Of a stretch of 64,000 nucleotides of DNA, positions 21,334-43,965 are shown piece after piece. The first letter of the stretch is position 1. Each line of letters opens with the position of its first letter. The DNA lies in NCBI GenBank assembly GCA_964016885.1, contig OZ024741.1, positions 268,274,001 through 268,338,000 of the forward strand, read 5' to 3'. The translations under genes were made by a program, and so were the position numbers. The DNA comes from Eledone cirrhosa. Its lineage: Eukaryota. The notes below the pieces were generated by a model. The model saw nothing but the letters and a program-made list of their open reading frames with translations. It was not told the origin of the DNA and did not search any database.

Positions 21334-21450
21334 TAATATAGATGAGATTCTACAGGACTAGAACTGTTTCATTCTTGAGAAATCATCAGGATTCCTGATG
21401 ATTTCTCAAGAATGAAACAGTTCTAGTCCTGTAGAATCTCATCTATATTA
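21334..21450. repeat. Perfect 117-bp palindrome centred on T21392, next to (TA)n
   Basis: Arms taatatagatgagattctacaggactagaactgtttcattcttgagaaatcatcagga and its reverse complement. Confidence 0.95.
21390..21438 (+). ncRNA. Type I hammerhead ribozyme (family A)
   Basis: gattc CTGATGA t-ttc-tcaa-gaa-t GAAACAG ttctagtc CTGTA gaatc; stem I gattc/gaatc, stem III ACAG/CTGT, GUA site. Confidence 0.85.
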
Positions 21451-21574
21451 AAATTTTTATACTCTGCTATGTATTGGGTACCTTACTTACTGTGGTTACC
21501 TCCAATTCAACCCGGAATAACTTACCTATATATATTTATATATCTCTATATATATATATATATATAATATACAA

Positions 21575-22852
21575 ATGGAAGAGAGAGAAATTACCCTCAG
21601 TAGATCCGACAGAGGAACCAGCTATTGAGATTGACGAATAAAGGGGCCAAGAGGCAATTAAGGAAATGAAAAATGGTAAGGCTGCTGGACCATCGGGAAT
21701 AGTTGCTGAGATGCTGAAGGTATCAGGGGACGTAGGCACTAAACTGGTTGCACGCATCATCAATCAGGCTATATATGGTGGTGTCATACCCAAAGACTGG
21801 TGCAGCAGTATTATCATAAATTGCTACAAAGGTAAAGGGGATGCTCTGGAGAGGAGCAATTATAGGGGTATAAAACTGATGGATCAGGTGATGAAAGTGG
21901 CAGAAAGGATATTAGCACAACTAATTAGAGAAAGGGTCAAACTGCATCTCAAGAGTACAACAGATGCCCTCTTCTTGGTGAGACAATTTCAAGAGAGGTT
22001 CTTAGAGAAAAATAAGCCACTATACTTAGCCTTTGTTGACCTAGAGAAGGCTTTTTATAGGGTACCCCAATCTGTCATCTGGTGGTCCCTAAGAAAGCTA
22101 GGTATTGAGGAATGGCTTGTGAGGACAGTGCAAACTTTGTACAGAGGTACTGTCAGTAAAGTCAGGGTAGGAATGGAGTTTAGTGAGGAATTCCAGATAC
22201 AAGTAGGAGTACATCAAGGTTCGGTCCTCAACCCGCTCTTGTTCATTATAGTCCTCCAAGCCATAACAGAGGAGTTTAAGACTGGCTGTCCATGGGAACT
22301 TCTCTATGCTGACGATCTGGTTCTTTTAGCAGAATCAGTAGAGGAGCTAGAGAATAAATTCTGGCTTTGGAAACAGCAGTTGGAAGCAAGAGGACTGAGA
22401 GTGAACCTAGCTAAGACAAAAGTGTTGATAAGTAGAAAAGAGGACAAAACTCTGATTCCGTCAGGGAAATGGCCATATTCGATATGCAGAAAAGGAACTG
22501 CATAAATTCTATAAAATGCATACAATGCAGATCTTGGGTACACAACAGATGTAGTGGGATAGCAGGCAAACTAACAGGTATGGAGAAATATGTATGCAGT
22601 AGATGTACAGGGAAATTAGACAGTAGAAGTTGCATTGATAGACACATTTTTCAAATGCAGGCAGGTGCTATAGAAGTGGTGGATAGCTTCCGATACCTAG
22701 GAGATCAGAGTGAGAAGAGACCTCAGATCGCTGAAGCTCACGGTGGAGATGACAAAGGACCGTGACAAGTGGAGAGATGCTGTGCTGAATAAGACCTGTC
22801 CCACCCTTGCAAGCAGGGAAGAGCGGACGTAAAATGATGATGATGATGATGA
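21575..22852 (+). mobile_element. 5'-truncated RTE LINE with internal deletions
   Basis: ORF 21666-22505 is an RT (KGKGDALERSNYRGIKL, ELLYADDL); jumps from YLGD directly to the 3' end; (GAT)n tail. Confidence 0.92.
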
Positions 22853-23120
22853 ATATATATATATGTATATGTTTAGAATTGGAGCTCTGAAATAGCAATA
22901 TATATATGGATGTATTGCAAAATACATTATATATACATCCATATGTATATGTATATATATGTGTGTTAAGTATTTCCATAGAAAGGGTAAAGGAAAGAAG
23001 AGTGCTCTATATATAGTACAGAGCTATTTAATTATGTAATAAACAATACAATATATATATATATAAATATAAATATAAAAATAGAAAAATAGAAAAATGA
23101 ACACAAACACACACAGACAC

Positions 23121-23176
23121 CCGGATGTGGCGCATGCGCAAACTGAGCACGCAACCCACACACAAACAAAATGGCG
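23121..23176 (+). promoter_or_regulatory. Clustered ETS-, NRF1- and YY1-like promoter motifs
   Basis: CCGGATGT (23121), GCGCATGCGCA (23130), CAAAATGGCG (23167) within 56 bp of otherwise CpG-poor DNA. Confidence 0.45.
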
Positions 23177-23222
23177 TAGGATAGAAGAAAGGAAAGGCAC
23201 AGAAACGAAGAAAGAAATCCCC

Positions 23223-23267
23223 AGTCACTGAAGAGGTCACAGAGTGTGTGACGAAAGAACTATGACT
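23223..23267 (+). ncRNA. Minimal type I hammerhead ribozyme
   Basis: agtca CTGAAGA g-gtcac-agagtgt-gtgac GAAAG aa CTA tgact; stem I agtca/tgact, 5-bp stem II, very short stem III. Confidence 0.7.
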
Positions 23268-23481
23268 ATATATATATAAACAACTATCTGGTTGTGGAAC
23301 CAACCAACCAACCAGAAATTTATAAATTTGTAAATTTATAAATATATATTAAATTAAATTGAAGTGAAAGCAACTGGTGCGTGTGTTTCTTATTGGCAAC
23401 ATGACCCTCCCAAAGTATAACAATATCGGTTTCAACACACGATTTCAGATAAAGAATCTTGCTAAACAAATTCAGAAACGA

Positions 23482-23587
23482 AATACAATATAATTATTCC
23501 ATTACCCAAGGTTTCACGAAGTCAGACGCTACTGTTAGAATTGTCTCTTTCCCGAAACCTTGGGTAATGGGATAATTATATTGTGTT
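23482..23587. repeat. Fold-back of HHR family B 3' half
   Basis: Arms aatacaatataattattccattacccaaggtttc / gaaaccttgggtaatgggataattatattgtgtt; homologous to PLE pLTR at 53015-53050. Confidence 0.8.
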
Positions 23588-23862
23588 ATTTATTACATAA
23601 TTAAACATATATATATATATACATATATATGTGTGTGTATATATATATATCAACTAGAAATTGATTGACATATATATATATTTAAAATAAACACATGAAA
23701 CAATCACAGGGGGTAATTTGTAAAGTGTGTAATCACACATAGCTAGGTAGGTAACTAATTAAAGTTTAACTAGAGCTTCAAATATTACCTTTTTAAAAAA
23801 AAATATATATATATACATACATATTTATGTATGATATATATACACATACATATATGTGTATA

Positions 23863-23901
<39 letters not shown>

Positions 23902-23910
23902 CATATATAT

Positions 23911-24043
23911 ATATTTATTAAAATAACAGATTAAAGTTTAAGCAAAGAATCGCTGCTTTCACCCTTAACGGGATCTAAGATCCCGTTAAGGGTGAAAGCA
24001 GCGATTCTTTGCTTAAACTTTAATCTGTTATTTTAATAAATAT
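23911..24043. repeat. Perfect 133-bp palindrome centred on A23977 within a remnant HHR core (family C)
   Basis: Centre gatct-a-agatc; right arm ctAAGA t-ccc-gttaa-ggg-t GAAAGC a GC; tail continues to ~24130, and its end also occurs at 14955-14985. Confidence 0.9.
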
Positions 24044-24151
24044 TTGCTCTACGGTTCTTATATATTTGATATATATTTTCCTTATCGAGCCCTCTTTGGA
24101 TTTTAGTCTTCAATTTTATTATTATTACTATATCATATATATATATATATA

Positions 24152-25210
24152 TCATCATCATCATCATCATCATCGTTTAACGTCCTGTGGGAGGGGGTGG
24201 GGCATATTGTCTATATGCTTCTGCTTTGGGTTGTACTCATGAGAAGTCGGGTCTTCTGTATTACTGTGTGACGCCAGAGGTCACGGTCATGTGTCATCGC
24301 CTTTGAGAGGTGCAATTAGGTAAGGTCGGCTTTTATCACCTCATCCCAGGTCTTCTTGGGTCTCCCCACTCCATGGCTTCCATCGACTTCTAGCGCTTTG
24401 CACCTTTTTATGCAGCTGTCATCCTTCATACGTATCACATGTCCATACCAATGCAGCCTCTTCTCCTGCACACAGCATTTGATTCCTCTTATGCTCAGTC
24501 TCTCTCTTAATTCGTTTATACTTTGCTGTTCGCGTATATTACTATTACACATCCATCGGAGCATGCAGGCTTCGTTTCTTTCTAATCTACGCAAGTCTTT
24601 TACAGACAACGCCCAGGTCTCACTACCATGTAACATTGCTGTTCGTATGCACGCATCATACAGTCTGCTTTTCCTTTTGAGGAAAAAGCCTTTTGCAGCT
24701 AGCAGTGGCAGTAGCTCCCTGAACTTCTTCCATCCCGTTCTTACCCTGGTACTTTCCGAACACCCACCTCCATGGCTAATTCAGTCACCTAGGTAGCAGA
24801 AGCTGTCTACTGTTTCTACAGACCCCTCCCAGAATTTGGTAGTGCTTGTTTCCTGTGGCCATTTGCTGATTGCTGTCCTGGTAAAGTCTACATTCTTAGC
24901 TAAGCTTCTTGAGATCCCACTACATCTCTTGTGTACACACTGTTTGCATTTGGGGCCGAGGATGGAGTTCCTACCTACACCTTTCCTACATACTGAGCAA
25001 GGCCATTTCCCTGAGGGGATCTGGGTTCTGCTTTCTCGTCTACTTATGAGGACCTTAGTCTTTGTCAGGTTGTCTTTGAGACGCTTTCTTTCTAGTCCCT
25101 GCTTCCATGTTTGGAATTTCTTCTCTAGTTCCACCATAGATTCAGTTATAAGTGTGAGATCATCTGCATACAGGAGTTCCCATGGGCATCTGGTCTTAAA
25201 CTCCTCTGCA
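24152..25210 (-). mobile_element. 5'-truncated RTE LINE
   Basis: ORFs 24781-25137 and 24316-24636 closely match the 61604 ORF; (CAT)n at the left end is the tail. Confidence 0.92.
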
Positions 25211-25239
25211 ATACTATAATGAACATATATATATATATA

Positions 25240-25491
25240 CAGGGGTGGTGGAACTGGGGAGGGGGGTACATGTCCCCCTTCCCCAAATAATTATATTTTT
25301 CTTCCCAAACTACCAAAATACACATCTATTTGTATATGTGTTACAATTCATGTACATGCTATATTTGTTGCATATCAAAGTTTTTTATATTTTGGTTGAT
25401 ATTTGATGATAAGAGCTAAACTAATCACTACAACTAAATTGACCAAATCCACCCCACCCCACCCCATTCAGAAATGCTTCCACCGCCCTTG
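25240..25491. mobile_element. MITE with GC-rich TIRs (PIF/Harbinger-like) in a TA tract
   Basis: caggggtggtggaa ... ttccaccgcccttg. Confidence 0.55.
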
Positions 25492-26726
25492 ATATATATA
25501 TATATATATATATTACTGTTTACTCAGGGAGGTAAGGAGGTAACAACTGAAGAACTGTCTGTGACCCTTTCCAGGGTTTTTCGAGACATCCAGGAAGAAA
25601 GCATGTTTGAATTGGACACTTTGAATCCTTTGAATCCTTTGAACAGAGGTGATGGTACAAACTCCTTGGAACTCTTTCGATACCAAACCACCTGAATCTA
25701 CCCCTGATTCTATGATTCTAAGCTGTATATTTTAAAGTGTTTTTATTCATCAAAAATCTTTTATCATAGTTTTATCTAAAAACCTTTGTTAAGTTATGTT
25801 CCAAACATCAACACTGTTTAACATCTATTTTCCATGCTTGCATAGGTTAGATGGATTGTCATATTATGAGGTTAGCCAGGTCAGGTCATGTAACCATATC
25901 TTGCTCATACAGATCTTTTGGGAGCTTGGTTTCTATGGCTAGATGCCCTTCTTAACACCGATCAGGTGTTTTTTTTATCATGGTATTAGCTTGACCACTT
26001 AACAGGGTGGGCTGGGTGCTTTTGTTGTAATGGCACCAGCACTATCCCTGTGCAGAGTGGACTGGGTGACTTTTGTCATTGCAACAGCACTGTGGGAAAG
26101 CAGGTGTGAAGTATGTTCAGCTTTCCATGCATGTATGGGTTGGACAGGAGAGGTGTATCATGTATGTGGAAGGCAGAGCAAGGAGTAGGCTTACATCCTC
26201 ATCATTGTTAAACATCTACTTCCCCCACCCTCCTGGGCAGAGAGGCTGTCATGTTCTAAGACAAGGCTGGACAGGAGACCACAGTTAGATCATACATCCT
26301 GTGAAACCACATCTAGTTCATAGACCCTGTTTTTGTTTTGCCATGTTGGCATAGGTTGGTGGAGGGGAGTGTATTTGCTTGTATGTGTCTACGCGGACCT
26401 GGGTGTGGATATGCATGTATGTGCATGGCTGCGTGTGTATGTATTTGTGTGCATGTGCAGGGATAGTCACGACATACAAGGGTATGAAATGGACGCATGT
26501 ATATGTGTGTGTGTGTGTATGTGCATGTATACAGGCTTGTGCATATGTAAGTATGTGGGTGTGTGTATATGCACGTATATATTTCTGTGTGGGGGGGGGG
26601 CCTGTGGGCATATGAGCGTGTATGTATGTACATGTGTCTGTCTGTGTGTGCATCTGTGGGTTGTATGTATGCACGGATGTATGCAGGTGTGTACACCTAA
26701 ACCTGTGCAAGAGTGCCCGTAAGGAC

Positions 26727-26762
<36 letters not shown>

Positions 26763-26907
26763 GCACAATTGTGAGTATCTGTAACTGTATGCATGGGTGT
26801 CTATGTGCATGTGTGTGCGTATATATATATGGGTGCATATATGTATGTGTGTGTATATATATATATGAGTAGGCTTGAATGTGTGCTTGTGTATGCAGGG
26901 GTATATA

Positions 26908-26954
<47 letters not shown>

Positions 26955-26971
26955 GTATGTGTATGTGTACA

Positions 26972-27010
<39 letters not shown>

Positions 27011-27480
27011 GTATGTGTATGTGTACATGTGTGTGTATATCTGTGTATACATGTACCTATGTATGAGGGTGTGAATATATGTATGTGTAAGTGTGTGGGC
27101 ACATGTGTACCCGTACATGCGGGTATGTGTGTGTACATGTCTGGACAAATATGTATGTGATCGGGAGTTCTGAGTGTCTGTGTGCGTGCACATGTATGTG
27201 TGGGTGAGTGTATTTCGAGGTACAAGCAAGCTCGGGGCATTCAAGACAGATTACAACCCCCTGCCCATATAGTAGTAATTCTGGTGGCAGAATTAAGGTG
27301 AGTGATAGCTTACGCCTGAATGGAAATAGTCAGTGGGCAGTTTTGACTGGTCAAAAATACAGATGACGACTCGAATTCTTGACCAATGGATGGGCTGTGT
27401 AAGCAGGATAATTATAGATGGGAGAAACTCAAAGGGACAGAATAGCATCAGACGGAAGATTTGCCTCAAAGTCGCTAGAC

Positions 27481-27569
27481 GTATCTGAGGAATTTGCGAA
27501 TCCAGAGTCAGGTTCAATCCATAAATAGATCGTACCACGAGCTGTTCGCCAGAGAAACAATTGTAATAC
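27481..27569 (+). ncRNA. Type I hammerhead ribozyme with extended stem II (family E)
   Basis: gtat CTGAGGA [~60 nt, gcgaa/ttcgc] GAAAC aatt GTA atac; palindromic stem III ACAATTGT. Confidence 0.75.
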
Positions 27570-29112
27570 TTTAATAAATTGTGTTTCGATGCATCACTGA
27601 TTCTTCATTTTCTATAATATTATACTCTGCTCTGAAGAAGCATAGAGTGCTCAACTGCCTATGGATACATCCAAGCAACCTTACTACAAATATATATATA
27701 ATGGTCTAGTGACTTTTTGGACACCCTGTATATATATTTCTGGGTTTTTGCAATCATTGGGTCTCAGGTACAATCACATTATGTGGAATCTTGGGCAAGT
27801 ATCATTTACTATATCCTTGTATCGACCCATACCTGGGTGGTGGTGGTAGTGTTTGGGGTGGGTCAAATTGGGTTGATGGAAACTTTTGGAAGCCGTAGGA
27901 TGTGCTGCACTTGTAATTAAAAAGCCCTGTGTTACGCTGAATCTTCCAGAGAATACATTAAGGGTTACAGTGTCTGTGGACTGCTCAGCCACTTACACGT
28001 TAATTTCATGAGCAAGCTTGTTCTGTTGATCATTCTTGAACATTCATCGTCGAAACCGACGGGAGTTCATCCCATTTCAGAGTCTAAACGACCATGTAGC
28101 TTCTATTGTGGGGTTTCATTCCGAACCACTGAGTCAGTCTTTATATACTATGTATCTTATACAAACACCAAGGATTAAAGAAGCCTTTTATACATTTTTT
28201 TTTCGTCCACTTTAGCATCCCAGCATGCAATTCAAAGATAATGTCGTGTTACGCACGCGCACATGTGAATAGCCTTGAATTTGTTCACAATTATCTTTGT
28301 ATAGACTGACATTTGGAGAGAGAAATAGATAGATAGATAGATAGATACAAATATGGAGAGGAAGGGAGACAGAGATCTACCATAAGTGAACCGAAATAAT
28401 GGTGTTATTTGTATTCTGAGATTAAAAAATGAAAGTAGGTCAAAAGGTGTATTGTGTTGAGAGGTAATCCAATTTTCAATGTAAGCTAAACAACATTCCT
28501 TATATTAAAGCATTGCTTAATCGTTGAAATGACAGTGGAATTAGAACGTACTGCCTTGTCCTTCTCCTCCCAATAAAATCTTGTTAGCTGGAAGAGACAA
28601 TATAATGCGCCAGATGTTTATTGTTACAGATGTCATAACAGTGGGAAAAAAAGTCATAGAAAAGAAAAAGTCACAATTATAGCTAGAAAAATAAAATGAC
28701 ACATTTCGTTTAAATATCTTAATAGTATTTCATAACCAATTAATCATTTCTTAACTAATTAATGACATTATACCTATCTAAAAAATAAAATATTCTATTA
28801 ATTTAAAAGAGAAATAAACAAAATATATACACTAAATCTATTAACATTTTTATTGTCCCTTCCCCCCTCCCCCGGGATTCTAACCATGACAATCCCGTGT
28901 TTTTAGTAGTTTTTCCACTTTTATTATATTACATAATGTGTCCGCTTCGATTTTAAAGCAGTATAGTGTAATTTGAGGGAGATTTGGTTGCTATCTCCAG
29001 CAAGTCGGAGCAGGCTATTGTTGCTATTTTTGTAGATTGGGTGAACATGTTGATCACCCCTTTGGCTCGTTAATAATTCTGGTGTTTGGTGTGGATGTGG
29101 TTTTGGTGACAG

Positions 29113-29424
29113 TGTGTGATGAAAGTGAAAATAATAAAACATGAGCAAGAATTCTCGGCCATCGCTACCCCCAATGATACGAGCACACACAGTGTGGGAA
29201 AACACTCTTTGGGGTGCAGAACGCCAAGCGCAGGTCTCCTTGCTGTCCCGGTGAATAGAATGGAGAAAGCGTTAACTCGAAGGTTAATGAGCGAGACGCG
29301 TTGTAATAGGCTTTCTAACTCGATGGGGGCTCTGCAGTCAATAGAAGTGGTTCGAAAGCCAAGAGAGCCAGAGGTTTCAACCGCCACAGGTTCAACGACC
29401 TCCAGATCAACAATGACTGAGTAG
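29113..29424 (+). CDS. Candidate host terminal coding exon (Ser/Thr-rich C-terminal tail); product unknown
   Basis: Unique, GC/CpG-enriched ~100-codon frame after a possible acceptor ggttttggtgacag; ends ..STATGSTTSRSTMTE*; no TE motifs recognised. Confidence 0.4.
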   Translation, partial: CVMKVKIIKHEQEFSAIATPNDTSTHSVGKHSLGCRTPSAGLLAVPVNRMEKALTRRLMSETRCNRLSNSMGALQSIEVVRKPREPEVSTATGSTTSRSTMTE

Positions 29425-30869
29425 ACATATGGCCAAAGACGTTCCAGCCATGTACATAAGACATTGTGCAATGGGACCTACAATTGTTTAAAGACAGTAG
29501 TGTGTGATTTGAAGAAGATTTGGCTGCTAAACTAGCAGATCGAAGGATCATGTAGAAGCTCCCTCGTTAGCTCGTAACAGTGGGCTTCTGTTGTTGTTAT
29601 TTAATCACGTCAATTGTGATGGACAGGCCTATGATTTAACCCTTTAGCATTTAAAGCGGCTGTATCCGGCCAGAATTCTAGCGGCCTAGCTAGTTTGTGC
29701 TCCCCGCCACCACCACAACCACCACCAGAGATGTCCTTAAACTTACCACCATTTTCATGAAAAGCACTATACGATGCACGACAAAAGTGCCGCCTGGGAT
29801 GGATCTCGCCTGATCACGCTACAGGATTTAAAGCATTGCAAATATGATCACTTTGATTTTTTTAAAGGTCATTTAGGAGAACTACATTATCTAATACGCC
29901 ATGACCTTATATAAATCAATAGAGTACGATTTGAGGGAAATTTTGGTACTATTTTTAACAGGTGGAGTGACTACTTAGAGTCTCTCGTTAGCTCCTGACA
30001 AAGTGCTTGCGGTAGTATGGTATAGTGTAAGTACAATAATCTCGGGGGCGGTACCAGCACGAATCTAATGAAGCGTTTTTGCAAATATCACTCCGTCAAA
30101 TGATCAAACTATTTATATATTGACGCTGAATTTGCTGAAGCAGAACAAATCTGTTAGTGACACTTAACCATAACAATAGATACTTTCTGCTGTATAGTGT
30201 CATCCATAGTAATCATATTTTTTTGTTTTTTTAACACAACACTGTATACTGGTAATAGTAAGGCTGTCCCTACTACTATGGAACACCGTATTAAAAACAA
30301 CAATCAAATCTTAACAAAAGAAATGGATACATTTGTTAATGTAAGTTCGTTCCACCTGAAATACAGGATAATCACAACTTACTTGTGACTGGTAATGCAC
30401 AATGTAATATGGTGGTAGTGCTATGCTGAATACAGTGTGGTGTGGTGATGTTATATATGTAGTACAGTGTAGCATGGTGGCAGGGTGATATATATGTAGT
30501 ACAGTGTGGTATGGTGCTTGTGGTAGTACAATGTTGTACGGTAGTGGTGGTAGTGTGATATATATATATATGCAGTACAGTGTGGTATGGTATGTTGGTG
30601 CTGGTGGTAGTACAGTTTTGTGTAGTGATGGTGGTGATAGTGTGATATATATATATGCAGTACAGTGTGGTATGGTATACTAGTGATGGTGGTAGTTGTG
30701 TTATATATGTATATAGTGTGGTGTAGTGGTGGTGTGGTATCTATATATACAGTGTGATATGGTGGTGGTGGTAGTAGTGTGGTATCAATCTATCATCTCC
30801 CTAACTCTTACCTTATCCCAATATATCCATCTTGTCAACTTTCCTTATGAACATTTAGTTGTAAGTTGA

Positions 30870-31110: not shown

Positions 31111-31347
31111 AATATTGCTTGTACAGGTAATCAAAGTGTCTATATATGTTTTGGGAACACCCTAAATATGTAGGCCTCAGACAAAACTAAACAAAACAAT
31201 CATTGCAAAAAGTTGATGATCGTTAGTCTAAATTGCATAGAATAAGATCAACTGCAGTCTTCTGACACATGAAACCCATCTGGACAAGAATAATCAGTAC
31301 TCCCATAAAGTTACACCTGTATAACACCATCATTATACTACCAATAA

Positions 31348-33092
31348 CACTGTGTAACATATTTTTTGTTCCCCGGTTCTAAGTGTCATTTCATGGTTTG
31401 TTATATCCCATTATTATAAAAAAAACATTATTATTTAATCAGAAGTTTGGGTTTGTGGTCAAGAGTTTGATATTTCGAAATTTTCATATTTTTCAAGAAA
31501 AAACACATTTAAAAAATATTTATCAATTCATATAATTAAATCAACAGAGTATATATTTATTTTATTACACAAGCTTATCAAAAGCAAACAAGTAAAAACA
31601 AATAACACCTATAAAGCAACTTATACATGTCAGAAATGACTGGATTTCCTGGATTTGCAGTTGTAGTCCAGGTCGCATTCCCGCACTAGCCCCCAGATAT
31701 AGTCCCCCATCATTTTTTCATTGTAGTGGCCCTGGTACCTTCGCTCTATCTCTTTCACATCTTGGTGGAATCGTTCGCCTTGTTCTTCTGAGTAGGCGCC
31801 CATATTGTCCTTGAATTTTTCCAGGTGAGCATCCAGCATATGGAGTTTAAGCGACATCCAGCATCCCATGACGTCAAAAGCCTTTATCAGATCCTGCACC
31901 AGTTGCAGGTAGTTTTCAGCTCTGTAGTTGCCCAGGAAGCCCTTAACAACTGCCTTGAAACAGTTCCATGCTGTTCTCTCAATCCTATTGAGCTTATTGG
32001 AGAACTCGGTAGACTCAAACACCTTCTTTATCTGAGGTCCAACAAAAATTCCACCTTTGATTTTGGTCTCAGATAACTTGGGGAAGAACTCAAGAAGGTA
32101 CTTAAAAGTGGCTGATTCTTGGTTGAGAGCCTTCACAAACTGCTTCATCAACCCCAACTTAATGTGCAGTGGCGGCATGAGCACAATCCTGGGATCAAAC
32201 AGTGGGTCCCACATGACGTTCCGGGTCCCAACTACAAATTCTGTTCGCTGCTCCCAGTTCTTTCTTTTGTAGTGGTCAGAGGTGGCTCTGCTGTCCCAAA
32301 GGCAGAGGAAGCATTGGAATTTGGTAAAGCCTCCTTGGAGTCCAAGCAGGAAAGCCACCATCTTGAAGTCTCCAATGATTTCCCAATTGTACTGGTTGTA
32401 TTGCAAAGCTTCCAAGAGGACTTTCACACTGTAGTAATCTTCCTTCAGGCACACTGAATGAGCTAGGGGCAGTGTCGGGAACTTGTTTCCATTGTGGAGG
32501 AGGACAGCCTTCAAACTTGTGGTGGAGCTGTCTATAAATAGCCGCCACTCCTTGGGCACAAATGGCACCGCAATAACGTCAAACAGTCCAGGCACGTCAT
32601 GGCAGAAGCAGAGGCCATCCCTAAGAGTGTAAAAGCCTGAGAAAGGTTTGTGTTGACTTCTCTGACTTGTCACCTGCACTTCCTCCTTGACCAAGCTCCA
32701 CTGCTTCATCCTGGAGACGAATGCTTAAAACACAACTTACCCTTTATTCATGGTGCGAAAATCCAGTATCAATAAATCTCTTTAATCCACTTTTTAACAA
32801 TTTTATACTTTATTGCACTTTTATAATTTTCTTTAGGTATTACTCTTTATTTTATAATTTTAATTTAACGTGAAACATATATAAAAAAATCATTTAACAT
32901 AAGCAAATTAAACTTACATACAACATAAAATCCAGCATACAAATAATTCTAGTGAATAGCTTAGAATTTTTACAAACCCAAACTTTTAACTGTTTAATAG
33001 CACTTTTTTTTTTATTTATTTGGGACCTAAGCAACACAAAAAAAGTGATAACAAGCCAGGAACAGGTAAAAAAAAATGTTCGTTACACGGTG
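31348..33092 (-). mobile_element. Chapaev3-type (CMC superfamily) DNA transposon, internally deleted
   Basis: Termini CACTGTGTAAC / GTTACACGGTG, 3-bp TSD TAA (31345-47, 33093-95), subterminal inverted 14-mer aagtttgggtttgt/acaaacccaaactt, transposase ORF inside. Confidence 0.85.
31630..32709 (-). CDS. Chapaev3-like DDE transposase, catalytic portion (N-terminus missing)
   Basis: EWRLFIDSS..LKAVLLHNGN..IIGDFK..CFLCLWDSRA..PPLHIKLGLMKQFVKAL..SEEQGERFHQD; 359 codons without a stop. Confidence 0.85.
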   Translation of the reverse strand: MKQWSLVKEEVQVTSQRSQHKPFSGFYTLRDGLCFCHDVPGLFDVIAVPFVPKEWRLFIDSSTTSLKAVLLHNGNKFPTLPLAHSVCLKEDYYSVKVLLEALQYNQYNWEIIGDFKMVAFLLGLQGGFTKFQCFLCLWDSRATSDHYKRKNWEQRTEFVVGTRNVMWDPLFDPRIVLMPPLHIKLGLMKQFVKALNQESATFKYLLEFFPKLSETKIKGGIFVGPQIKKVFESTEFSNKLNRIERTAWNCFKAVVKGFLGNYRAENYLQLVQDLIKAFDVMGCWMSLKLHMLDAHLEKFKDNMGAYSEEQGERFHQDVKEIERRYQGHYNEKMMGDYIWGLVRECDLDYNCKSRKSSHF

Positions 33093-34500: not shown

Positions 34501-34596
34501 AATATATATATATATATACTCTTTTATTCTTTTACCTGTTTCAGCCATCCGGCTGAGGCCATGCTGGGGCACCGCCCTATATATATATATATATAC

Positions 34597-34631
<35 letters not shown>

Positions 34632-34714
34632 GGAGGTGAGTTTTATTGTAGCACAATAAAGCAATGCAAATATTGGATAAGTAGCACTCAACAGTTTATA
34701 GGACTGGAGTATAA

Positions 34715-34923
34715 ATAATATAAAATCAAAAGATGGTTAAAAGAGTTCCATGTATTTTATTATGCACATTTCAAAAACAAATATCATCATGGGATGATAT
34801 TTGCATTCTCATCAGATAAAATAGGGAGACATAATGAGAATGTAAATATCATCCCATGATGATATTTGTTTTTGAAATGTGCTTAATAAAATACATGGAA
34901 CTCTTTTAACCATCTTTTGATTT

Positions 34924-34931
<8 letters not shown>
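34715..34931. repeat. Fold-back palindrome (~98-bp arms, 21-bp spacer) of HHR family D'
   Basis: Arms differ at only a few positions; the right arm begins at ATGA of the CUGAUGA core; flanked by (TA)n. Confidence 0.92.
34755..34821 (-). ncRNA. Type I hammerhead ribozyme (family D')
   Basis: ttttat CTGATGA gaatg-caaatatcatc-ccat-gatgatatttg-ttttt GAAA tgtgca TA ataaaa. Confidence 0.8.
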
Positions 34932-34997
<66 letters not shown>

Positions 34998-35242
34998 TAC
35001 ATATATATATACATATATATATAAATATAATTTTCAAACATATTTTATTATTTGTTTGACCCGAATAGCTTGGTCGTTTCTATGGCTCTGCGGTTAATGG
35101 TTTAACCGTCATCTCAGTGTCTTTGGCCTTTTAACGTATGTTGATGCTCTAGTTCACTCGTTTCTACGGAGCGCTTGCCACACATCTCCGAAGTTGTTTT
35201 TTGCTAATTTCCAACAGCCGAAATGCGATTCTCGCTAATTTA

Positions 35243-35301
<59 letters not shown>

Positions 35302-35330
35302 CAGGAAAGAAGGTTGACATGGTTTGCTAT

Positions 35331-37560
35331 ATCATCATCATCATCATCATCAACGTTTAACGTCCGTGTTCCACGCTTGCATGGGTTTGGACGGGGGTAG
35401 TCCCACTTGAGGCAAGAGTGATTGTCTTGCTCGCATAGGACTGTCTGGCAGGTTTTCTACAGTTGGATGCCCTTCCTAACACCAACCACATTTACAGTGT
35501 GGGGCTGGGAGGTTTTTACCGTGTTGCCTACACGGCCACATTACAGCGTGGACTGTGTGTTTTTTTTGTCGTGACACCTACACGATCTCATTTGTTTCGG
35601 CCTGGATGGCGCGGCACCAACATAACTTTACATAGAACGGTGCGGTGTGGATGGGGTGGGGGTGGTGGTGGTGGGACGGAGTGTATTTTGTTAGAGATGC
35701 CTACTGGCTGGAGTAGGTTTTACTATATATTTAGGTAAGGCGGGTCTTCTCTGTTACTGAGTACCGCCAAAGGTCTCGGTCCAGTGACATTGTCTTGGAG
35801 AGGTGTAAGTGTGTGATGTCGGAGTTTATCAGCTCGTCCCAGGTTTTTCTAGGTCTGCCTATTCCGTGACTACCGTCTATCTTTATTGCCCTGCACTTTT
35901 TTATACAGCTATCGACTTTCATGCACATCACGTGTCCATACCAATGTAGCCTTCTCTCGAGTAAACAACATCTGATCCCTCTTATCTCTAATTTTTTCCT
36001 TAGTTCGTTTATGCTTTGCCGTTCACGTATATTACTGTTACACATCCAGCGGAGCATGCAAGCTTCGTTCCTCTCTAGTCTGCGTATATCCTCTGCACAC
36101 AATGCCCAGGTCTCACTGCCATGCAGCATTGCTGTTCGTATGCAGGCATCGTACAACCTGCCTTTCATTTTTAGGGAGAACCCTTTAGCAGCTAATAGTG
36201 GTATAAGCTCTCTGAACTTTTTCCAACCAGTTCTGACTCTAGCTACAGTACTTTCAGAGCACCCTCCCCCACTGCTGATTTTATCGCCCAGGTAACGGAA
36301 GCTGTCCACTATTTCTATAGAACCCTCTGCGCAATTGAAAGAGCTAGTATTTAGTGGGCACTTGCTGCTACTTATTGCACCAGAACACCGGCCACATGTA
36401 AAATCTATGTTCTTAGTTAGCTTACCTGTGATCCCACTACATCTTTTATGCACCCATACTTTGCATTTAGGACATAAAATGGAGTTTCTACCTACGCCTT
36501 TCCTACACACCGAGCACGACCATTTCCCAGAAGGGACCGCCGCCTTATTTTCTTTCCTACAAACTAGAACCTACGCCTTTCCTACACACCGAGCACGACC
36601 ATTTCCCAGAAGGGACCGCCGCCTTGTTTTCTTTCCTACAAACTAGAACTTTGGTCTTAGCCAGGTTAATTTTAAGTCCTTTTGACTCTAGGCCGTGCTT
36701 CCATGTTTGGAATTTCTTCTCTAGCTCGGCCATTGATTCCGCTATGAGTTTCAGGTCGTCTGCGTATAGGAGTTCCCATGGGCAGCCTGTCTTGAACTCC
36801 TCTGTTATAGCCTGAAGGGCAATAATAAATAGTAGGGGGCTGAGAACAGAGCCCTGATGGACGCCAACTTTTACGCTAAACTCTTCACTATATTCGTTGT
36901 TAATTCTAACCTTGCTGACTGTTTCTTTATACATGGCTTGTATAGGCCTCACAAGCCATTCGTCAACGCCTAGTTTTCTAAGAGTCCACCAGATAATGGA
37001 GCGGGGGACTCTGTCGAAGGCTTTCTCCAAGTCGACAAAAGCTAAGTAGAGGGGTTTACCTTTAGCTAGGTACTTCTCCTGTAGTTGTCGTACTATGAAA
37101 AGAGCGTCTGGTACTTTTGCCTGACACAAACCCGAACTGCATTTCATCTAGGTCAATTCTCTCTCTGATTAGTTGCGCTATTACTTTTTCCGTGACCTTC
37201 ATGACCTGGTCGATTAATTTAATGCCTCTATAGTTACTCCTATCTAGGGCGTCTCCTTTACCCTTATAACAGTTAACGATGATGCTGCTATGCCAGTCCT
37301 TCGGAACAACCCCATTCTGTACGACTTGGTTAACTATGCGGGTGACCATGGTGTGTCCCACCGTGCCAGATGCCTTCAGCATCTCAGCAACTATTTCCGA
37401 AGGCCCAGCCGCCTTACCCGTCTTCATATCCTTGATTGCCTTACTTATTATACTCCCCTCGACTAACACTGCTGGTCCCTCTATTGGGTCGATATGGGGG
37501 AGACTGTCTTTCCCCCATTTAGTAGCCTTTCGTAGTGACACTTCCAAGCTACCTTCTTAT
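35331..37560 (-). mobile_element. 5'-truncated RTE LINE with long 3' UTR, frameshifted, with a 79-bp internal tandem duplication
   Basis: ORFs 37062-37547, 36557-37147, 35731-36510; duplication at 36491-36649; (CAT)n tail. Confidence 0.95.
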
Positions 37561-37561
37561 C

Positions 37562-37592
<31 letters not shown>

Positions 37593-38855
37593 TGTGTATA
37601 TATAAATGTCCAGAAACATATACACAATACATTTCCTATATCAATCATGTTGCTCTCAATAAGAAGTTTGCTTTCCAATCACAAGTTCTTGTCATGACTG
37701 GCAACTCACCTTACCGAGGTGTCAGGTGATGCCTATGAAGGTGCTTGGTTGTTCCAGCGCCTTAGCCTCAGCTCTGGCACCCCTTATGATGTGTGAGCAA
37801 TTGACACACATTCCTACTTAGTGTTGAATAAATATTTTCTTTCATTTTGATTATATATTTTTGTGTGAAATTATGTAATTAAGTACGATCTATATTGTTT
37901 GTGTGTATATTTTCATTCTGTAAGGATTATAAATAATTTGTAATATTATTTATACAATTGTGAATTTAACTCAATCTTGTATTATCAGAGAATAAATAAA
38001 AATTATCATCACAATTTCCTGTCCCCATGAGTATATTATAAATGAAGAAATCCTTTGAAGCTCCAACTCCCAACCATTGTGATGTATTTTGGAAGATTTC
38101 AATTAGCTAGACGCATGCTATGGCTCCCAGACATTAGACATGCAAAGGGGACAATTTGTTGATCCCCACCAGAGGGGAAACAGAAGAGAGAAAGGGCTAA
38201 GAAGACCTGTTTGTGAGGATTTGCGGGAAGGGGTGGGATGGACATCAGCTCTGAAGATATAAAAAAATCATTTCAGACCTGCCAACATCTAAAAACCCAA
38301 ACGGGAGATATTTCATAATGAAATCTATACCCATTTTCACAAGAGAAGACATCTCTCACCCACCCCAAAGTGAGTGGGAGATCTCCTCCGTCGGGGTGGG
38401 GGTGGGGGAGTTGACTGGTATATCATTTGAACAGGCAGAATCTTGTCTAAGTAGGTGTTGGCATTTATGAATTAAATTATAGTGTAATACACAACTCTTT
38501 GAACTGTAAGATTAACCATTTCAGTTAACATACAACATGAACTGACAAAATGGTCAATGCACTGGAGGATGCGAGGGAGAAAGCCAGTGTTTAGTGGTTT
38601 TCTTACCGGAATTTGAATCATAAAGCTTAACCGTTATAATTATACGTCATAAGTCATGTGCCTATGACGTGTAAGGAAGCCATAATTTCAGGCAAAGTAA
38701 GAAAGAATTGCACAATACATAGTAAAATGCATATGCTTACAATAGAGGAAAACACAATATTCCTGATGATGAGACCGTGAAATTCTTAAAACATCGATTA
38801 CCTTATAAACTGAGGAAAATTCGTGACATTTCTAATAAAGAAAATAGCAGATGGG

Positions 38856-38891
<36 letters not shown>

Positions 38892-38984
38892 CCAAAGATT
38901 AATATGGTTCGTTGATTACTCAACGAATACAGTTTTACAATAGATTAGAAGCACTCAACAAAAAAAGTTTTCCTTGAGTTTTTA

Positions 38985-39242
38985 ATATTATTCAAAATGT
39001 TAACAAATGAAAAATATTCGCATAATCAAAATATATACTTTATTATATATATTTCAAAGGTACTGTGCTGATAAGGGAATTGAATAATCAAGACCGTAGC
39101 GGTTTGTCATATATCAAATCATATATTTTGTCTGATGGGGACGTACTGAAAAAAAACAGCACAGTACCTTTGAAATATATATAATAAAGTATATATTTTG
39201 ATTATGCGAATATTTTCCATTTGTTAACATTTTGAATAATAT
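38985..39242. repeat. Fold-back palindrome (86-bp arms) of HHR family D
   Basis: atattattcaaaatg...gtactgtgctg / cagcacagtac...cattttgaataatat; left flank 38890-38960 matches the reverse complement of PLE tail 51860-51920. Confidence 0.9.
39125..39190 (+). ncRNA. Type I hammerhead ribozyme (family D, A9G variant)
   Basis: attttgt CTGATGG ggacgtactg..cagtaccttt GAAA tatata TA ataaagt. Confidence 0.7.
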
Positions 39243-40147
39243 ATATATATATACGATGCATAACGGGAGGTGGAAGTCCATCATATATATATATATGGGG
39301 AGGGAATTGTGTGTACATCGCTAAACAACTGGTGCTGTTTGTTTATATCTCGTAGCATTTCGACATACAGAGATCGATTAAATAAAACAATTACTAGATC
39401 TAAAAATCAGTACTGGAGTCGATATGACCGACTATATCATGAAAAGCGGAACCCCAGCATGGCCCCTGTCCAATGGCTAAAACAAGTAAAATAATGGTTT
39501 CTTTATTTATATATATATACACGCACACAACTATCTAGAGAGAGGTTCCCATTACAATTACAGTTCGCGCGCATGTGTGTATGTATGCGCGAGATAGAGA
39601 GAGGAATAAAGAGAGTATATACATATATATATACTTAAACATGTTTGTATATAGACATTACTACCTACTAACATTATCCTGTATCCCCTCACTTCCCCTT
39701 TATTGCTGAGCTGTCAGTGAAATAACAACCAGACAATCCGACACATGGCCTCATTTCAGGACGTTCACCCCTTCGTTATTCTTTGGCTCCCGGCTCTCTG
39801 CACTTAATTCACTGCTGTCTGGCAATTATTTCACCACCTCTCTCTCTCACACACACTTTGATTCTTACTCTGCTTCTGTTTCTCTCTCTCTCTCTCTCTC
39901 TCTTTCACTCTATCTATCAATCTATTCTCTCACGATGCTCTTCTTTCAATATTTCTCTCTTTCACACTCTCTTTATTTATTAAGCTAGATAGCTTGTAGA
40001 GGTGAGTATCGTAAAATGCCTGTCATTAACCACGTAATGTACGATCGTCGAGCAACAGGCCGTTATACTCCGAGTAGTGATGTAATTCTCATAACTACAA
40101 TATCAACCACAATAATACGTCGCGTATATATATATACATATATACAT

Positions 40148-40222
<75 letters not shown>

Positions 40223-40313
40223 CATATATACATACATATATACATATATATATACATATATACATACATACATATATATACATATATATATATACATATA
40301 TACATACATATAT

Positions 40314-40344
<31 letters not shown>

Positions 40345-40381
40345 ATATAAGATCAAAAGATGGTTAAAGGAGTTCCATATA

Positions 40382-40448
40382 TTTTATTATGCGCATTTCA
40401 AAAACAAACATCATCAAGCAATAATATTTGTGTTTTCATCAGATAAAA
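40382..40448 (-). ncRNA. Type I hammerhead ribozyme (family D', minus copy)
   Basis: Reverse complement of 40602-40668. Confidence 0.8.
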
Positions 40449-40601
40449 CAGGAGAACATGATATGAAGGCTAAAAAAACACTTGTTGATAGTGCAGTTTT
40501 AAATCAACATGCAGTTTTAAATCAACAAATCAACATGATATGTTGATTTAAAACTGCACTATCAACAAGTGTTTTTTTAGCCTTCATATCATGTTCTCCT
40601 G

Positions 40602-40668
40602 TTTTATCTGATGAAAACACAAATATTATTGCTTGATGATGTTTGTTTTTGAAATGCGCATAATAAAA
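40602..40668 (+). ncRNA. Type I hammerhead ribozyme (family D')
   Basis: ttttat CTGATGA aaacacaaatattattgcttgatgatgtttgttttt GAAA tgcgca TA ataaaa; palindromic stem III ATGCGCAT. Confidence 0.82.
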
Positions 40669-40705
40669 TATATGGAACTCCTTTAACCATCTTTTGATCT
40701 TATAT

Positions 40706-40736
<31 letters not shown>

Positions 40737-40839
40737 ATATATGTATGTATATATGTATATATATATATATGTATATATATGTATGTATGTATATATGTAT
40801 ATATATATATATGCAATATATATGTATATATATATATAT

Positions 40840-41403
40840 ACAACCTGTCTCATGGTCGGGTCGTTGCCGACTAAACTGGCAACCCCACCAAGGTTTCTTG
40901 GTGAGGAGGGTGACTTTGGACATCCTGCAGGACTAAAAACAAAACCTGTCAAAGGGCAAAGGAGCTCTTAAGAGTCAATGGCCATCCAAAATCACCGGGA
41001 GAGATGACCCCTTAGCCTTTGTCAAGGCAGAATTCTAGGAGAAGGAAAACTCTGATATAACACCTGCAACCCTGATGGTATCCAATGATGTTGACTTGTT
41101 CTTCTTTTTGGTAAATATCATCTTGGTTAAGAGAGTGGGACTGGCTTTGTGCAGTGCCTTTGCTCACTATAAAAGCTTCACGGCACAGGCATTGCTTTAT
41201 ATCTGGAGATCTCTCTGCACTTGTCGTCACATGGTACCATGGGCCCAACACTATGTGTCAATAATTGTCACAAGTGTAGTCTTTGTACCAGAGTTTTCAA
41301 GTCGCTGGCTGGACTAAAAAGTCACTCGTTCAGCGCATCAGTAGGGGTTCTCCTACATGGATATAAAGTAGTGGCCGTACTCGAAAACGAGTTGGCAGCC
41401 ACC
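40840..41403 (+). mobile_element. Bipartite non-autonomous RTE derivative (5' UTR-like part joined to 3' zinc-finger end)
   Basis: ctaggagaaggaaaactctga resembles RTE 5' UTRs; downstream [17 protein letters not shown] resembles a BovB-type C-terminal C2H2 finger; flanked by (TA)n. Confidence 0.55.
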
Positions 41404-41464
41404 ATATATATATGTATATATATGTATGTATGTATATATGTATATATATATATATGTATATATG

Positions 41465-41520
<56 letters not shown>

Positions 41521-41615
41521 TATGCATGTATACGTACATACATATATGTATACAGACGTACAGTAGCTAAACTGATACGTGCATATATGTATGTGTACCT
41601 GTATGCATATGTATA

Positions 41616-41650
<35 letters not shown>

Positions 41651-41766
41651 GTGCATGCTACTGTACGTCTGTATACATATATGTATGTACGTATACATGC
41701 ATACTTACATTTAAGTAAGTGCCATACTAAGAGTGAGAAATGAAATTTCGTTTTCATTTTGTTTCA

Positions 41767-41804
<38 letters not shown>

Positions 41805-43777
41805 CTTAGAGTTTAGACTCAAAGATGTCATTTACAATCATTTCAGCTCTCTCTATATATATTTATAGAGAGAGAGAGAGAGAAATATATCCGCTTGTAA
41901 CTCTACAATTTACTCTCGCATAAACATACGCACATTTACACAATATATTTCCTATATCAGCCAAGTTACTACAATAAGTTCGCTTTCCAATCACAAAGTC
42001 CTGTCCTTGTAAATAGTCATTTCTTCAAAATTACTCATATATATTATCATACTAAACATTTATGTAATTATATCCTAGAAATAAATTATTAAAATATCAT
42101 TTTTATCTTTAATCACTTCCACATGTCAGTAATCAACACAAACTATAGGGTTTCCCTTATACAACAGGAATTTGCCATATTCTATGATTGTTCATCTATC
42201 AAATAATCCTAGTATGAAAGGCATAACAATCCTGGATTCCAAAAATTAAATACATCCAACGCTATTGCCATTTAGTAAATAAAGGTTTCTGATTTAGGCA
42301 CAAGGCCAACAATTTTTGGGTGGACGGAAGTCGATAAAATCGACTCCCAATGCCTTACTAGTACTTTATTTTATCCACCCAGTAAGGACGAAAATCAAAG
42401 CAAATCATGACGGAATTTGAACTCAGAATGCAAAGGGCTGTAACTATATGCTATAAAGCATGTTGTCCGACACTCTACCAATACTGTCAATCCATTGTTC
42501 TCTTGCTAGTAAATAATTGTTTCTACTTTTGGCACAAGGCCAGCAATTATCTCAGTGCATTACTGGTACTTTATTTTATCGACCCTGTAAGGATGAAAAG
42601 CAAAGTTAACTTCGGTGGGATTTGAAATCAGAACGTCAAGGGCCATAACTCTATGCTGCAAAGCATGGTGTCTGATGCTCTACCGATACTGCCAATTGGC
42701 GACAAAATGCCAACAATTTTGGTGGGAGCGAAAAACAATTAATTTCGGCCCAAGTGCATTAATGGGGCTTTATTTTATCGACCCCATAAGCATGAAAAGG
42801 CAAAGTTAACCTCAGCGGGATTTGAACTCAGATCGTAAAAGGACGTAACTCCATGCTGCGAAGCATGTTCGACGCTCTATCGATACTGCCAATTCACTTC
42901 CCTTCTGCTAGTAAATAATAAAGAACAAAGCAACAAAAATAAAAGGAAAAGGTCCAAGTAAATTCTTACCCTTTCGTTACCAGATTTCCAATGAAATCAC
43001 TGCCTATGATTTTCAAATAACTTTGAAAATAGTCAAGAGCTTGGGGGATTTAGTAAAATAACTAACTTTCTTATTAAGTTGACGCGTGGAGCATAACAGA
43101 AATTCTTACTTAAAAGTTGGATGGAAGGTTTTTACAGAAATATAAACATTTTAATCTTCTAATGAAAAACACTGAATAATTTGTAAAATAATCAAGAGTT
43201 TGGGGGATTTTGTAATATAATTTTCTTGTTACTAAGTTAATGTTTGGGGTAGAGCTTAACAAAAGTAACAACCAGTGCCATCCATCACCCACCACTCCCT
43301 TCGTGAGAGATCCAATATTCCTGGAAATCTAGCAGCAGCACAACTCCTTGAACATCTCCCACCTCATCCTCACTCTAGCTACAATATTTTCAGTACATCA
43401 ATCTCCTCTACTTATGAGGTCACCTAACTAGCAATATCTATCTATTTAACTTCTAGTAAACCTTCTGAGCATTTGACCGAATTTATTTCACAAGTAACCT
43501 TTAATCTTGACTTCTCCTGTCCACCTGTCACATATGATGTTTACTTACACTTCTTGTACATCCATGTTACACAGTGGGTAAAACATGGAGGTTCTGCTAT
43601 TGAATTCTGAATATTGAGAAAGGCCATTTCCCTAATGGGAGCAGAATCCTATCCTTTAGCTATCCTAAATATTAAAACTTTGATTCCAGATTTTGTTTCC
43701 ATTTGTCTGGAACTTAGTCTCTGATTTCTCTGTGGTTTTTATGAAGGCTAGATTATCAGTATAGAGGATCCTGCCCC

Positions 43778-43835
<58 letters not shown>

Positions 43836-43840
<5 letters not shown>

Positions 43841-43965
43841 TTTATAGAAGGAGCTTCTACAGGACTAGTACTGTTTCATTCAGATGAAATCTTCAGGAAG
43901 CTTCCTGAAGATTTCATCTGAATGAAACAGTACTAGTCCTGTAGAAGCTCCTTCTATAAAATAAA
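43836..43965. repeat. Perfect 130-bp palindrome, no spacer, centred on AAG|CTT
   Basis: Exact reverse-complement arms; (TA)n on the left and after the tail (ends ~44037). Confidence 0.95.
43899..43949 (+). ncRNA. Type I hammerhead ribozyme (family A); identical overlapping copy on the minus strand at 43852-43902
   Basis: agcttc CTGAAGA t-ttc-atct-gaa-t GAAACAG tactagtc CTGTA gaagct; stem I covaries with the 21390 copy. Confidence 0.88.

Follow-up and report, generated by a model that had tools for sequence, protein, structure and literature searches.

Inverted pairs of Penelope-like 3' ends in Eledone cirrhosa meet at family-specific walls that are likely transcription starts

Palindromic element ends in the 64-kb window

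The analysed window, a stretch of 64,000 nucleotides from the Eledone cirrhosa genome, contains short palindromes that consist of head-to-head 3' ends of Penelope-like elements (PLEs) with Hydra-clade motifs and are sited in (TA)n (Table 1). Every palindrome named in an earlier note on this DNA is present, and the coordinates given there were mostly right. Two more were absent from its list: one of family B (40525), which lies inside 21334..43965 and whose arm start is 70 nt upstream of C3, and one of family C (60697), whose right arm has its start 4 nt downstream of the family C initiator-like A, with C3 following 84 nt later. A palindrome at 41517-41707 has no hammerhead and was set aside.

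Table 1. Hammerhead motif and PLE-derived palindromes in the window
Feature	Position	Strand	Axis	C3	Arms and remarks
Type I minimal hammerhead motif	43899..43949	+		43905	Stem I 43899-43904 with 43944-43949; palindromic loop III
Family A palindrome	43836..44036		43900/43901		Short arm 43836-43900 (-), tailed arm 43901-44036 (+); flanked by TA tracts
Family A sister-subfamily palindrome	21323..21527		21392	21395	
Family D palindrome	23911..24130		23977		Axis 8-9 nt 3' of family D wall; core box variant CAGAAGA
Family B asymmetric palindrome	34630..34936			34815	Tailed arm (-) to -17 (34832); other arm from +3 (34834)
Family B palindrome	40345..40710 (palindrome 40238-40812)		40525	40608 (+), 40442 (-)	Arms from initiator-like A 40538
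C-like family palindrome	38890..39242			39132	Left arm ends in loop II (39070); right arm from ~39076, 56 nt upstream of C3
Family C palindrome	60470..60871 (also given as 60605-60789)		60697	60771	Right arm from 60687
Family A-related palindrome	9650..9850				Arms are tail only, both 3' of cleavage site; 16-nt spacer 9745-9760 is a core/stem-II piece
Palindrome of a further family	23485..23584				Arms begin at GAAA; 38-nt spacer in stem-II region
Lone family A-related fragment	12931..12962	-			Begins in loop II, adjoins TA tract

The hammerhead motif of the family A palindrome is predicted from its sequence to be cleaved after 43943. A folding prediction contains its stem I, and the copy at 21395 carries a compensatory change. 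A motif and stem scan identified CUGANGA and GAAA boxes, stems I and II and a palindromic loop III in families A, B and C, while long copies of family D carry the variant box listed in Table 1 and depart from CUGANGA. An Rfam search of the window returned hairpin look-alikes but no hammerhead match. The 43900/43901 axis is perfect and lies within a self-complementary AGCT at a candidate transcription start (A at 43899); this junction type is also spanned by one short-read contig.

The elements share several features with the Hydra-clade PLEs described in PMC8557442, namely a reverse transcriptase with RW and DKT motifs, a CxCX5C linker, a hammerhead in the pLTR, (TA)n insertion and tandem and inverted 5'-truncated copies with an optional tail. 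The DKG to DKT change that marks this clade was found as SDKT in the ORFs of loci L101, L173 and L276, and the N-terminal RWK position reads RWR in L101 and L276 and RWI in L173. By eye, the linker before the C-terminal GIY-YIG domain was recognized in L276 as CNCRNRVDC, and the ORF at 54729-55628 of the window has the same CxCX5C spacing; the endonuclease region of L276, where absence of the CCHH motif is a Hydra-clade mark, is interrupted. A Pfam search gave no family match for the PLE ORFs. Most arms end in TA tracts, and the pLTR-ORF-pLTR layout with (TA)n insertion is exemplified by L276, in which hammerhead motifs at 662 and 3921 surround the ORF and define a unit of 3,259 nt. The ORF begins 160-210 nt past the tail anchor. 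Short copies number thousands to tens of thousands per family; these copy numbers and the unit length of L276 differ from those in PMC8557442, and breakpoint walls are not described in the accessible text of that paper.

Breakpoint walls and the position of the ribozyme

Arms sampled from other parts of the genome were mapped in four families. The 30 loci from the first DNA search were excluded from the breakpoint counts, because this search favoured copies beginning at the junction of the window. The arms end at a sharp 5' wall whose position is family-specific. Hammerhead stem I lies at the wall in two of the four families (A and D), and the walls of families B and C are located upstream of the ribozyme. 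The earlier note had proposed that the folded hammerhead stalls reverse transcriptase, which then snaps back onto its own cDNA, and that the element boundary would thereby be dictated by the ribozyme fold. Its expectation that breakpoints would peak rather than scatter was supported, but across families the peak is not tied to the ribozyme.

In family A, 37 of 95 arms start within -1..+3 of an A at C3-6 and only 2 of 95 in the 49 nt that precede this interval. The corresponding stop rates per nucleotide, 0.152 for the wall as compared with 0.010 within the ribozyme and 0.0018 upstream, indicate clustering far above chance. The peak marks the 5' edge of stem I, with 31 of 90 arms, whereas an approaching polymerase would encounter the 3' edge first, where just 4 of 90 arms start; this speaks against a stall at the folded ribozyme. 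Ends at -57 to -85 in this set were not accepted as breakpoints; there the alignment stops within a poly-C run. The wall of family D, at C3-5, is weak (9 of 89 arms; an arm there in three of nine pairs). In both families the wall coincides with the first stem-I base and many arms end inside the ribozyme (34/95 in A, 23/89 in D), as a stall would have it, and stop rates within the ribozyme exceed those upstream (0.009 versus 0.0035 in D; 0.010 versus, rounded, 0.002 in A). Centres within stem II or loop III also occur (L104, L046).

The wall of family B is placed 69 nt from the ribozyme, with 27 of 87 arms starting within 2 nt of an A at C3-69. Genome matches at this wall numbered 4,781, against 325 in a 9-nt window at stem I; a 9-nt control window gave 814, a count that may be inflated because this window is near the wall. 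A small excess of ends at C3-8..+3 in the family B sample (7 seen, 1.4 expected, P = 7e-4) is a possible contribution of the ribozyme. The subfamilies of family C diverge, which makes reference-based end calls unreliable, and ends were therefore called without a reference: 26 of 49 called ends or axes fall 71-90 nt upstream of C3 and none 27 nt or less upstream, so that the wall is situated ~80-90 nt upstream of the hammerhead core (about C3-89). The general form of the stall model is contradicted by the main walls of families B and C, and we regard it as quite improbable despite the features of families A and D and the small stem-I excess that agree with it. Among the few ORF-bearing arms sampled, none was seen to start at a wall.

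Within the window, the observation that symmetry axes repeatedly fall at the ribozyme core was confirmed in part; 40525 and 60697 turn upstream. The axes at 43900/43901 and, at the same position in the sister subfamily, 21392 do lie in the 5' strand of stem I. At 23515-23554 the arms diverge immediately 5' of GAAA, in what is the stem-II region in a related family, and the lone fragment said to stop in stem II (12931-12960) starts in loop II. Other assignments were right in part. The axis at 23977 is 3-4 nt into the core box, but the box is not the CUGANGA named; one arm of the palindrome at 34715 starts at the ATGA, but its partner does not; the left arm of 38985 does end at 39070, in loop II, but the right one extends further upstream of C3; and around 9744-9760 the spacer derives from the core and stem II, but neither arm does.

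Promoter-like motifs and the base preceding the wall

Each wall is placed on an initiator-like A. A TATA box, TATAAATA, precedes the family A wall by 29 nt and that of long copies of the sister subfamily, whose spacer has diverged, by 30-32 nt; no TATA box was found at -30 in families B, C and D. A TCACT-like motif at -88 to -90 is conserved across the diverged subfamilies of family C, and TCACT has been named initiator-like in a rotifer pLTR (PMC3846280).

Untemplated G residues at L1 and SVA insertions have been interpreted as copies of the cap (PMC4859970). Where the template of family D has T at -1, G was found 53 times, A 30 times and C 17 times among 100 matches listed of 1,443 (hand count; first 30 checked), compared with G in 16 of 65 non-T bases at -2 (Fisher P = 4e-4). 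Pooling families A, B and D, G precedes 21 of 35 wall arms versus 23 of 65 other truncated arms (P = 0.02); a strict test limited to -1 bases unexplained by the partner arm was not significant (11/31 versus 4/14, P = 0.74). Many -1 G bases of family A could derive from the partner arm, and the lone central G-C pair of family B is ambiguous because the template base is C. Palindrome 40525 carries G at 40537, a position occupied by C in long copies.

The initiator-like A at the walls and the non-templated G of family D make it likely that the wall is the transcription start, i.e. the capped first base of the mRNA, rather than the site of a ribozyme stall, which leaves the G at -1 unexplained. 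The exact start sites predicted are C3-6 (A), C3-69 (B), about C3-89 (C) and C3-5 (D). In families A and D start site and stem-I edge coincide and are thus indistinguishable; in B and C, where the ribozyme is apart, the peak follows the candidate start site. These data suggest that the element boundary, contrary to the proposal of the earlier note, is not set by the ribozyme. Because no common exon sequence precedes the family A wall, an AG that ends at -5 was not taken to mark a 3' splice site there.

The location of the walls on sense-strand promoter motifs, with the extra G on the sense 5' side, also bears on the template strand, which PMC8557442 and PMC3846280 call open together with the formation of PLE inverted repeats. 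For the Penelope palindromes of Adineta vaga, which share head-to-head inverted pLTRs, a junction palindrome, a one-sided tail and TATA and initiator-like motifs in the pLTR with the elements studied here, self-priming on an antisense RNA was proposed, with the argument that it explains head-to-head polarity and intron retention (PMC3846280). The walls instead point to a capped sense template and priming in vitro takes place on sense RNA (PMC11167929), so that antisense self-priming appears extremely improbable here.

Arm asymmetry and formation of the palindromes

The outer ends in families A, B and D are bimodal, with one long-tailed and one short-tailed class, and exactly one arm was tailed in all 52 scored head-to-head pairs, as the earlier note had observed. 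Most pairs overlap on the RNA; L081, L086 and L117 do not. The tailed arm reaches further 5' in 25 of 52 pairs, the short-tailed arm in 15, and both reach equally far in 12. Perfect loopless centres were counted by hand in 38 of 100 family B and 24 of 100 family A palindromes, and junction types occur in mirror forms (L031/L034 versus L035/L043; L037 versus L053). The arms of one palindrome share subfamily variants (0 differences in L249 versus a median of 16 to other loci; 0 versus 7 in L245), and pairing of two RNAs from different loci via the ribozyme is therefore unsupported.

One explanation of these pairs is that a single cDNA runs off at the capped start, folds back and is copied onto itself, with later central deletions producing uneven arms; such deletions could indeed mimic arm asymmetry. 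Shared variants would be expected of one template, a tailed arm made first is compatible with 37 of 52 pairs, and short templated repeats are present in some spacers (40511-40537). Shared variants fit two primings on one RNA equally well, however, and perfect loopless centres, which need just the 4-nt annealing of two ends, are common. Together with the mirror forms and the short-tailed arms that extend further 5', this makes fold-back unlikely. As 15 of 52 pairs have no arm that fully includes its partner, two cDNAs, started at each of the two known tail sites, are favoured, and snap-back is weakened in its simple form.

Alternatively, the walls may reflect no RNA end at all but self-complementary words (AGCT, ATAT) that act as repair hot spots, or a few palindromic masters amplified as units. 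The commonest junction in family A, and likewise in B, is one identical perfect palindrome. That of family B is nevertheless present on three variant backgrounds, arms starting at the wall are also joined to TA tracts or other sequence (L100, L171, L185, L192), the family D wall has no self-complementary word, and junctions are diverse. We consider such an origin highly improbable.

The palindromes are probably paired 3' ends whose inner ends lie at the family-specific start of the capped mRNA, where two cDNAs ran off and were joined head to head. This explanation builds on the observed wall, initiator-like sequence, family A TATA box, family D G excess, two outer ends and ORF position. The mRNA would start in the upstream pLTR, so that priming sites would occur twice, ~60-190 nt from the cap and again at the 3' end. 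Once the RT-endonuclease had nicked the two strands of the TA tract, it would prime at both the near and the far site; both cDNAs would copy through the uncleaved hammerhead up to the cap, sometimes adding C opposite the cap. Joining of their ends would use four self-complementary nucleotides (AGCT in A, ATAT in B), be blunt, or follow trimming. Only where transcription begins at the first stem-I base (A, D) would the axis meet the ribozyme. Priming in TA tracts, as the earlier note had it, is supported. Its read-through of the cleavage site also agrees with an uncleaved template, since the predicted cleavage site is the exact start of only 1 of 90 tail-anchored family A arms; the circular template it considered is not needed. 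More tentatively, an RT-endonuclease dimer may perform symmetric double priming, nicking both strands, copying the capped 5' end twice and fusing the cDNAs. Every short palindrome would then be a fossil of a transcription start and its cap, and mRNAs of some families would begin at the first stem-I base, tying ribozyme folding to the cap.

A Penelope-like protein studied in vitro, Poseidon of Anolis, nicks and extends both strands of an AT-rich target, uses uncleaved RNA and has two internal start sites that define the tail (PMC11167929). The Poseidon ORF begins within the ribozyme, whereas the ORF here begins well after it; 5' ends of insertions and inverted arms are not treated in the accessible text of that paper. 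Formation of the palindromes resembles L1 twin priming in its working, not in its product. In L1 twin priming the two parts are not known to overlap on the RNA; an L1-type product was rejected here, as the arms usually cover the same stretch and form a palindrome. Shared with L1 are the inversion obtained from two primers on one RNA and the untemplated G that marks copies reaching the cap (PMC4859970).

The palindrome structure was already known, and the breakpoint rule was not found in the literature searched, mostly open-access papers, among which none listed maps PLE inversion points to a start site. Tens of thousands of short copies in the genome provide a base-level readout of insertion, in which walls on sense-strand initiators and the extra G argue that the template is a capped sense mRNA primed internally close to its 5' end, and that two cDNAs are made. 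An assignment to non-LTR retrozymes, which form head-to-tail arrays with a hammerhead per unit, was rejected, as the copies here lie dispersed in head-to-head orientation. The sole family A array seen (L088) repeats the whole palindrome together with its TA tracts.

Inner arm ends relative to the ribozyme

The window belongs to a 3.0-Gb genome in which four Penelope-like element (PLE) families, A to D, form head-to-head palindromes in (TA)n. Exact pattern counts were 1,892 for the family A tail and 13,811, 38,702 and 36,009 for B, C and D. Copies extending beyond the tail reach an RT ORF (L101, L173, L276), and L276 is laid out as pLTR, ORF, pLTR with a unit of 3,259 nt. The elements carry DKT and RW motifs together with a CxCX5C linker and target (TA)n, in agreement with the Hydra clade as described in PMC8557442, and by motifs and target they appear to match Hydra-clade PLEs. 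The palindromes are real and their structure was already known, as 5'-truncated inverted copies with a one-ended tail are reported in parts of PMC8557442 and PMC3846280; no breakpoint rule for PLE palindromes was found in literature searches.

Inner (5') arm ends were mapped relative to the hammerhead core base C3. Sequence 3' of the ribozyme served as the anchor, and matches were taken in order along contig C1 (90, 70 and 70 loci for A, B and D); a duplicate locus was removed, as were two of the three tandem copies in L088, and identical contexts were merged. Two-arm counts in these families were limited to arms with an exact match to the anchor and 330 nt of sequence upstream. For family C, 50 loci, the last five picked as close pairs, were combined with C arms met in other loci, a choice that enriched the sample for palindromes.

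Among tail-anchored family A arms, 31 of 90 begin at C3-7 to C3-2 (nt upstream of C3), one at -8 to -56, four at +34 to +46 and one exactly at the predicted cleavage site. With both arms counted, 37 of 95 begin within -1 to +3 of the A at C3-6, 34 deeper in the ribozyme and two in the next 49 nt upstream. Of 89 family D arms, nine begin at the A at C3-5, a further 23 in the ribozyme and nine in the 49 nt adjoining upstream. Family B arms begin no more than 2 nt from the A at C3-69 (27/87), at C3-8 to +3 (7/87) or further 3' (5/87). For family C, where 31 of 80 arms gave no call, 26 of the 49 ends or axes that could be called fall 71-90 nt upstream of C3 and none within 27 nt upstream; by eye, stem I holds the ends of two arms (L302, L309). 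Genome-wide family B patterns, which demand non-template bases upstream, differ somewhat in capture rate and give counts without denominators, yielded 4,781 matches at the pile-up base (6 of 100 among the matches listed being a long-copy variant), 325 in a 9-nt stem-I window and 814 in a 9-nt window 8-16 nt past that base. The earlier note had expected a peak at the ribozyme; from these counts, the peak is therefore family-specific and linked to the ribozyme in two of the four families.

All palindromes named in that note were recovered. The axes at 43900/43901 and 21392 lie within the 5' strand of stem I as claimed, while the palindromes at 34715 and 38985 end in the ribozyme with one arm each and at 9744-9760 the spacer, not the arms, is ribozyme sequence. 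The palindrome at 23977 was confirmed, but the CUGANGA box assigned to its axis was not, since the family D core reads CAGAAGA. Family D may not cleave, although with 36,009 anchor matches it ranks among the families with most copies. Type I minimal hammerhead motifs were found in several families by a motif and stem scan; an Rfam search of the window gave no hammerhead match.

The proposal that reverse transcriptase reads through an uncleaved ribozyme is supported. Its companion, that stalling at the folded ribozyme sets the element boundary, is not supported: families B and C turn far from the ribozyme, and the family A peak lies at the far edge of stem I, whereas polymerases pause at first contact with a stem. 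A minor stall effect on arm ends is possible, in line with seven family B ends at stem I against 1.4 expected and with stop rates that are elevated within the ribozyme of both A and D. Cleavage and circles are proposed in passages of PMC4209133; no observation here needs them.

The pile-up base as a putative transcription start

The base at which inner ends pile up, termed the wall, is an A in pyrimidine-A context: CCAGCT (A), TCATAT (B), TCACTA (C) and TTAGTT (D). Those of A, B and D we take to be initiator-like; the word TCACT is so named in part of PMC3846280. TATAAATA is located 29 nt upstream of the family A wall and, with a different spacer, 30-32 nt upstream in a sister subfamily. Family D long copies carry T at -1, directly before the wall, and non-template junctions carry G 53, A 30 and C 17 times (hand count of 100 among the matches listed, first 30 rows re-checked). 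G at 53/100 listed compares with 16/65 at -2 (P = 4e-4). In families A, B and D taken together, a G stands before 21 of the 35 arms that begin at the wall and before 23 of the 65 arms truncated elsewhere (P = 0.02); a strict test of the G excess was not significant (11/31 vs 4/14). Untemplated G in L1 and SVA is read as copied cap in passages of PMC4859970, and starts inside the pLTR are described for Penelope (PMC2377424, in part) and Chlamys-3 (PMC8557442, in part). From sequence, we infer that the wall is the transcription start of the element RNA.

The first A is missing in about a third of family A wall arms among the matches listed, T being the commonest substitute there (20/31, hand count), as would result if the cDNA end had received an untemplated A. 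The family C splice-site-like word (see table) has a spacing near the 46-nt Penelope intron given in part of PMC2377424.

Origin of the paired arms

Outer ends are bimodal (A ~+55/+130; B ~+95/+185; D ~+65/+95), which fits the two internal priming sites, nicking of both strands and uncleaved template described in vitro in passages of PMC11167929. One tailed arm and one short arm were present in 52/52 scored pairs. The tailed arm extended further 5' in 25 pairs and the short one in 15, with the two level in 12; in those 15, neither arm can have been copied from its partner, barring a later deletion. Both arms of a palindrome carry the same variants and so derive from a single RNA or a single source locus. 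At the most frequent junctions the arms overlap by a 4-nt self-complementary word located at the wall (A 24/100, B 38/100 among the matches listed), which would follow from annealing of two cDNA ends. The best reading, which we consider fairly probable, is that doubly primed cDNAs run off the template at its capped start. Short copies would be primed near the mRNA 5' end and long copies in the 3' pLTR.

Further features of the window

Features of the window and related loci
Position	Strand	Feature
40238-40812		palindrome left out of the earlier note; turns 70 nt upstream of C3
60605-60789		palindrome left out of the earlier note; turns 84 nt upstream of C3
23974-23990		family D core box (also L276:662-700)
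43899		candidate start = exact first base of stem I, family A; likewise in family D (L181-L290)
60718-60730		5' splice-site-like word, family C, ~40 nt past initiator-like A, kept across diverged subfamilies
43982-43992, 34683-34693, 38945-38955, 60525-60535		short word shared by tails of otherwise unlike families
49200-50319	+	degraded PLE ORF, RT and endonuclease motifs resembling L276
54461-55628	-	degraded PLE ORF, as preceding
41517-41707		inverted repeat, multi-copy, without hammerhead motif
23223-23310		further hammerhead family, very short stem III, no inverted partner at this copy (also L038, L080, L083)
61196-63676	+	LINE-type copy
35731-37556	-	LINE-type copy
44146-45334	+	LINE-type copy
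24316-25290	-	LINE-type copy
21642-22765	+	LINE-type copy
31630-32724	-	ORF, 364 residues

The short word common to the tails is a candidate protein-binding signal. A hammerhead family present in L036 and L047 is arranged head to tail at ~467-nt spacing, retrozyme-like, in L047. Tandem arrays are covered in part of a retrozyme preprint (10.64898/2026.07.22.740005), whereas the palindromes here are not such arrays. The 364-residue ORF, without a match in a Pfam search, presumably resembles a transposase. The longest ORF of the LINE-type copies matches Pfam RVT_1 and PHD.
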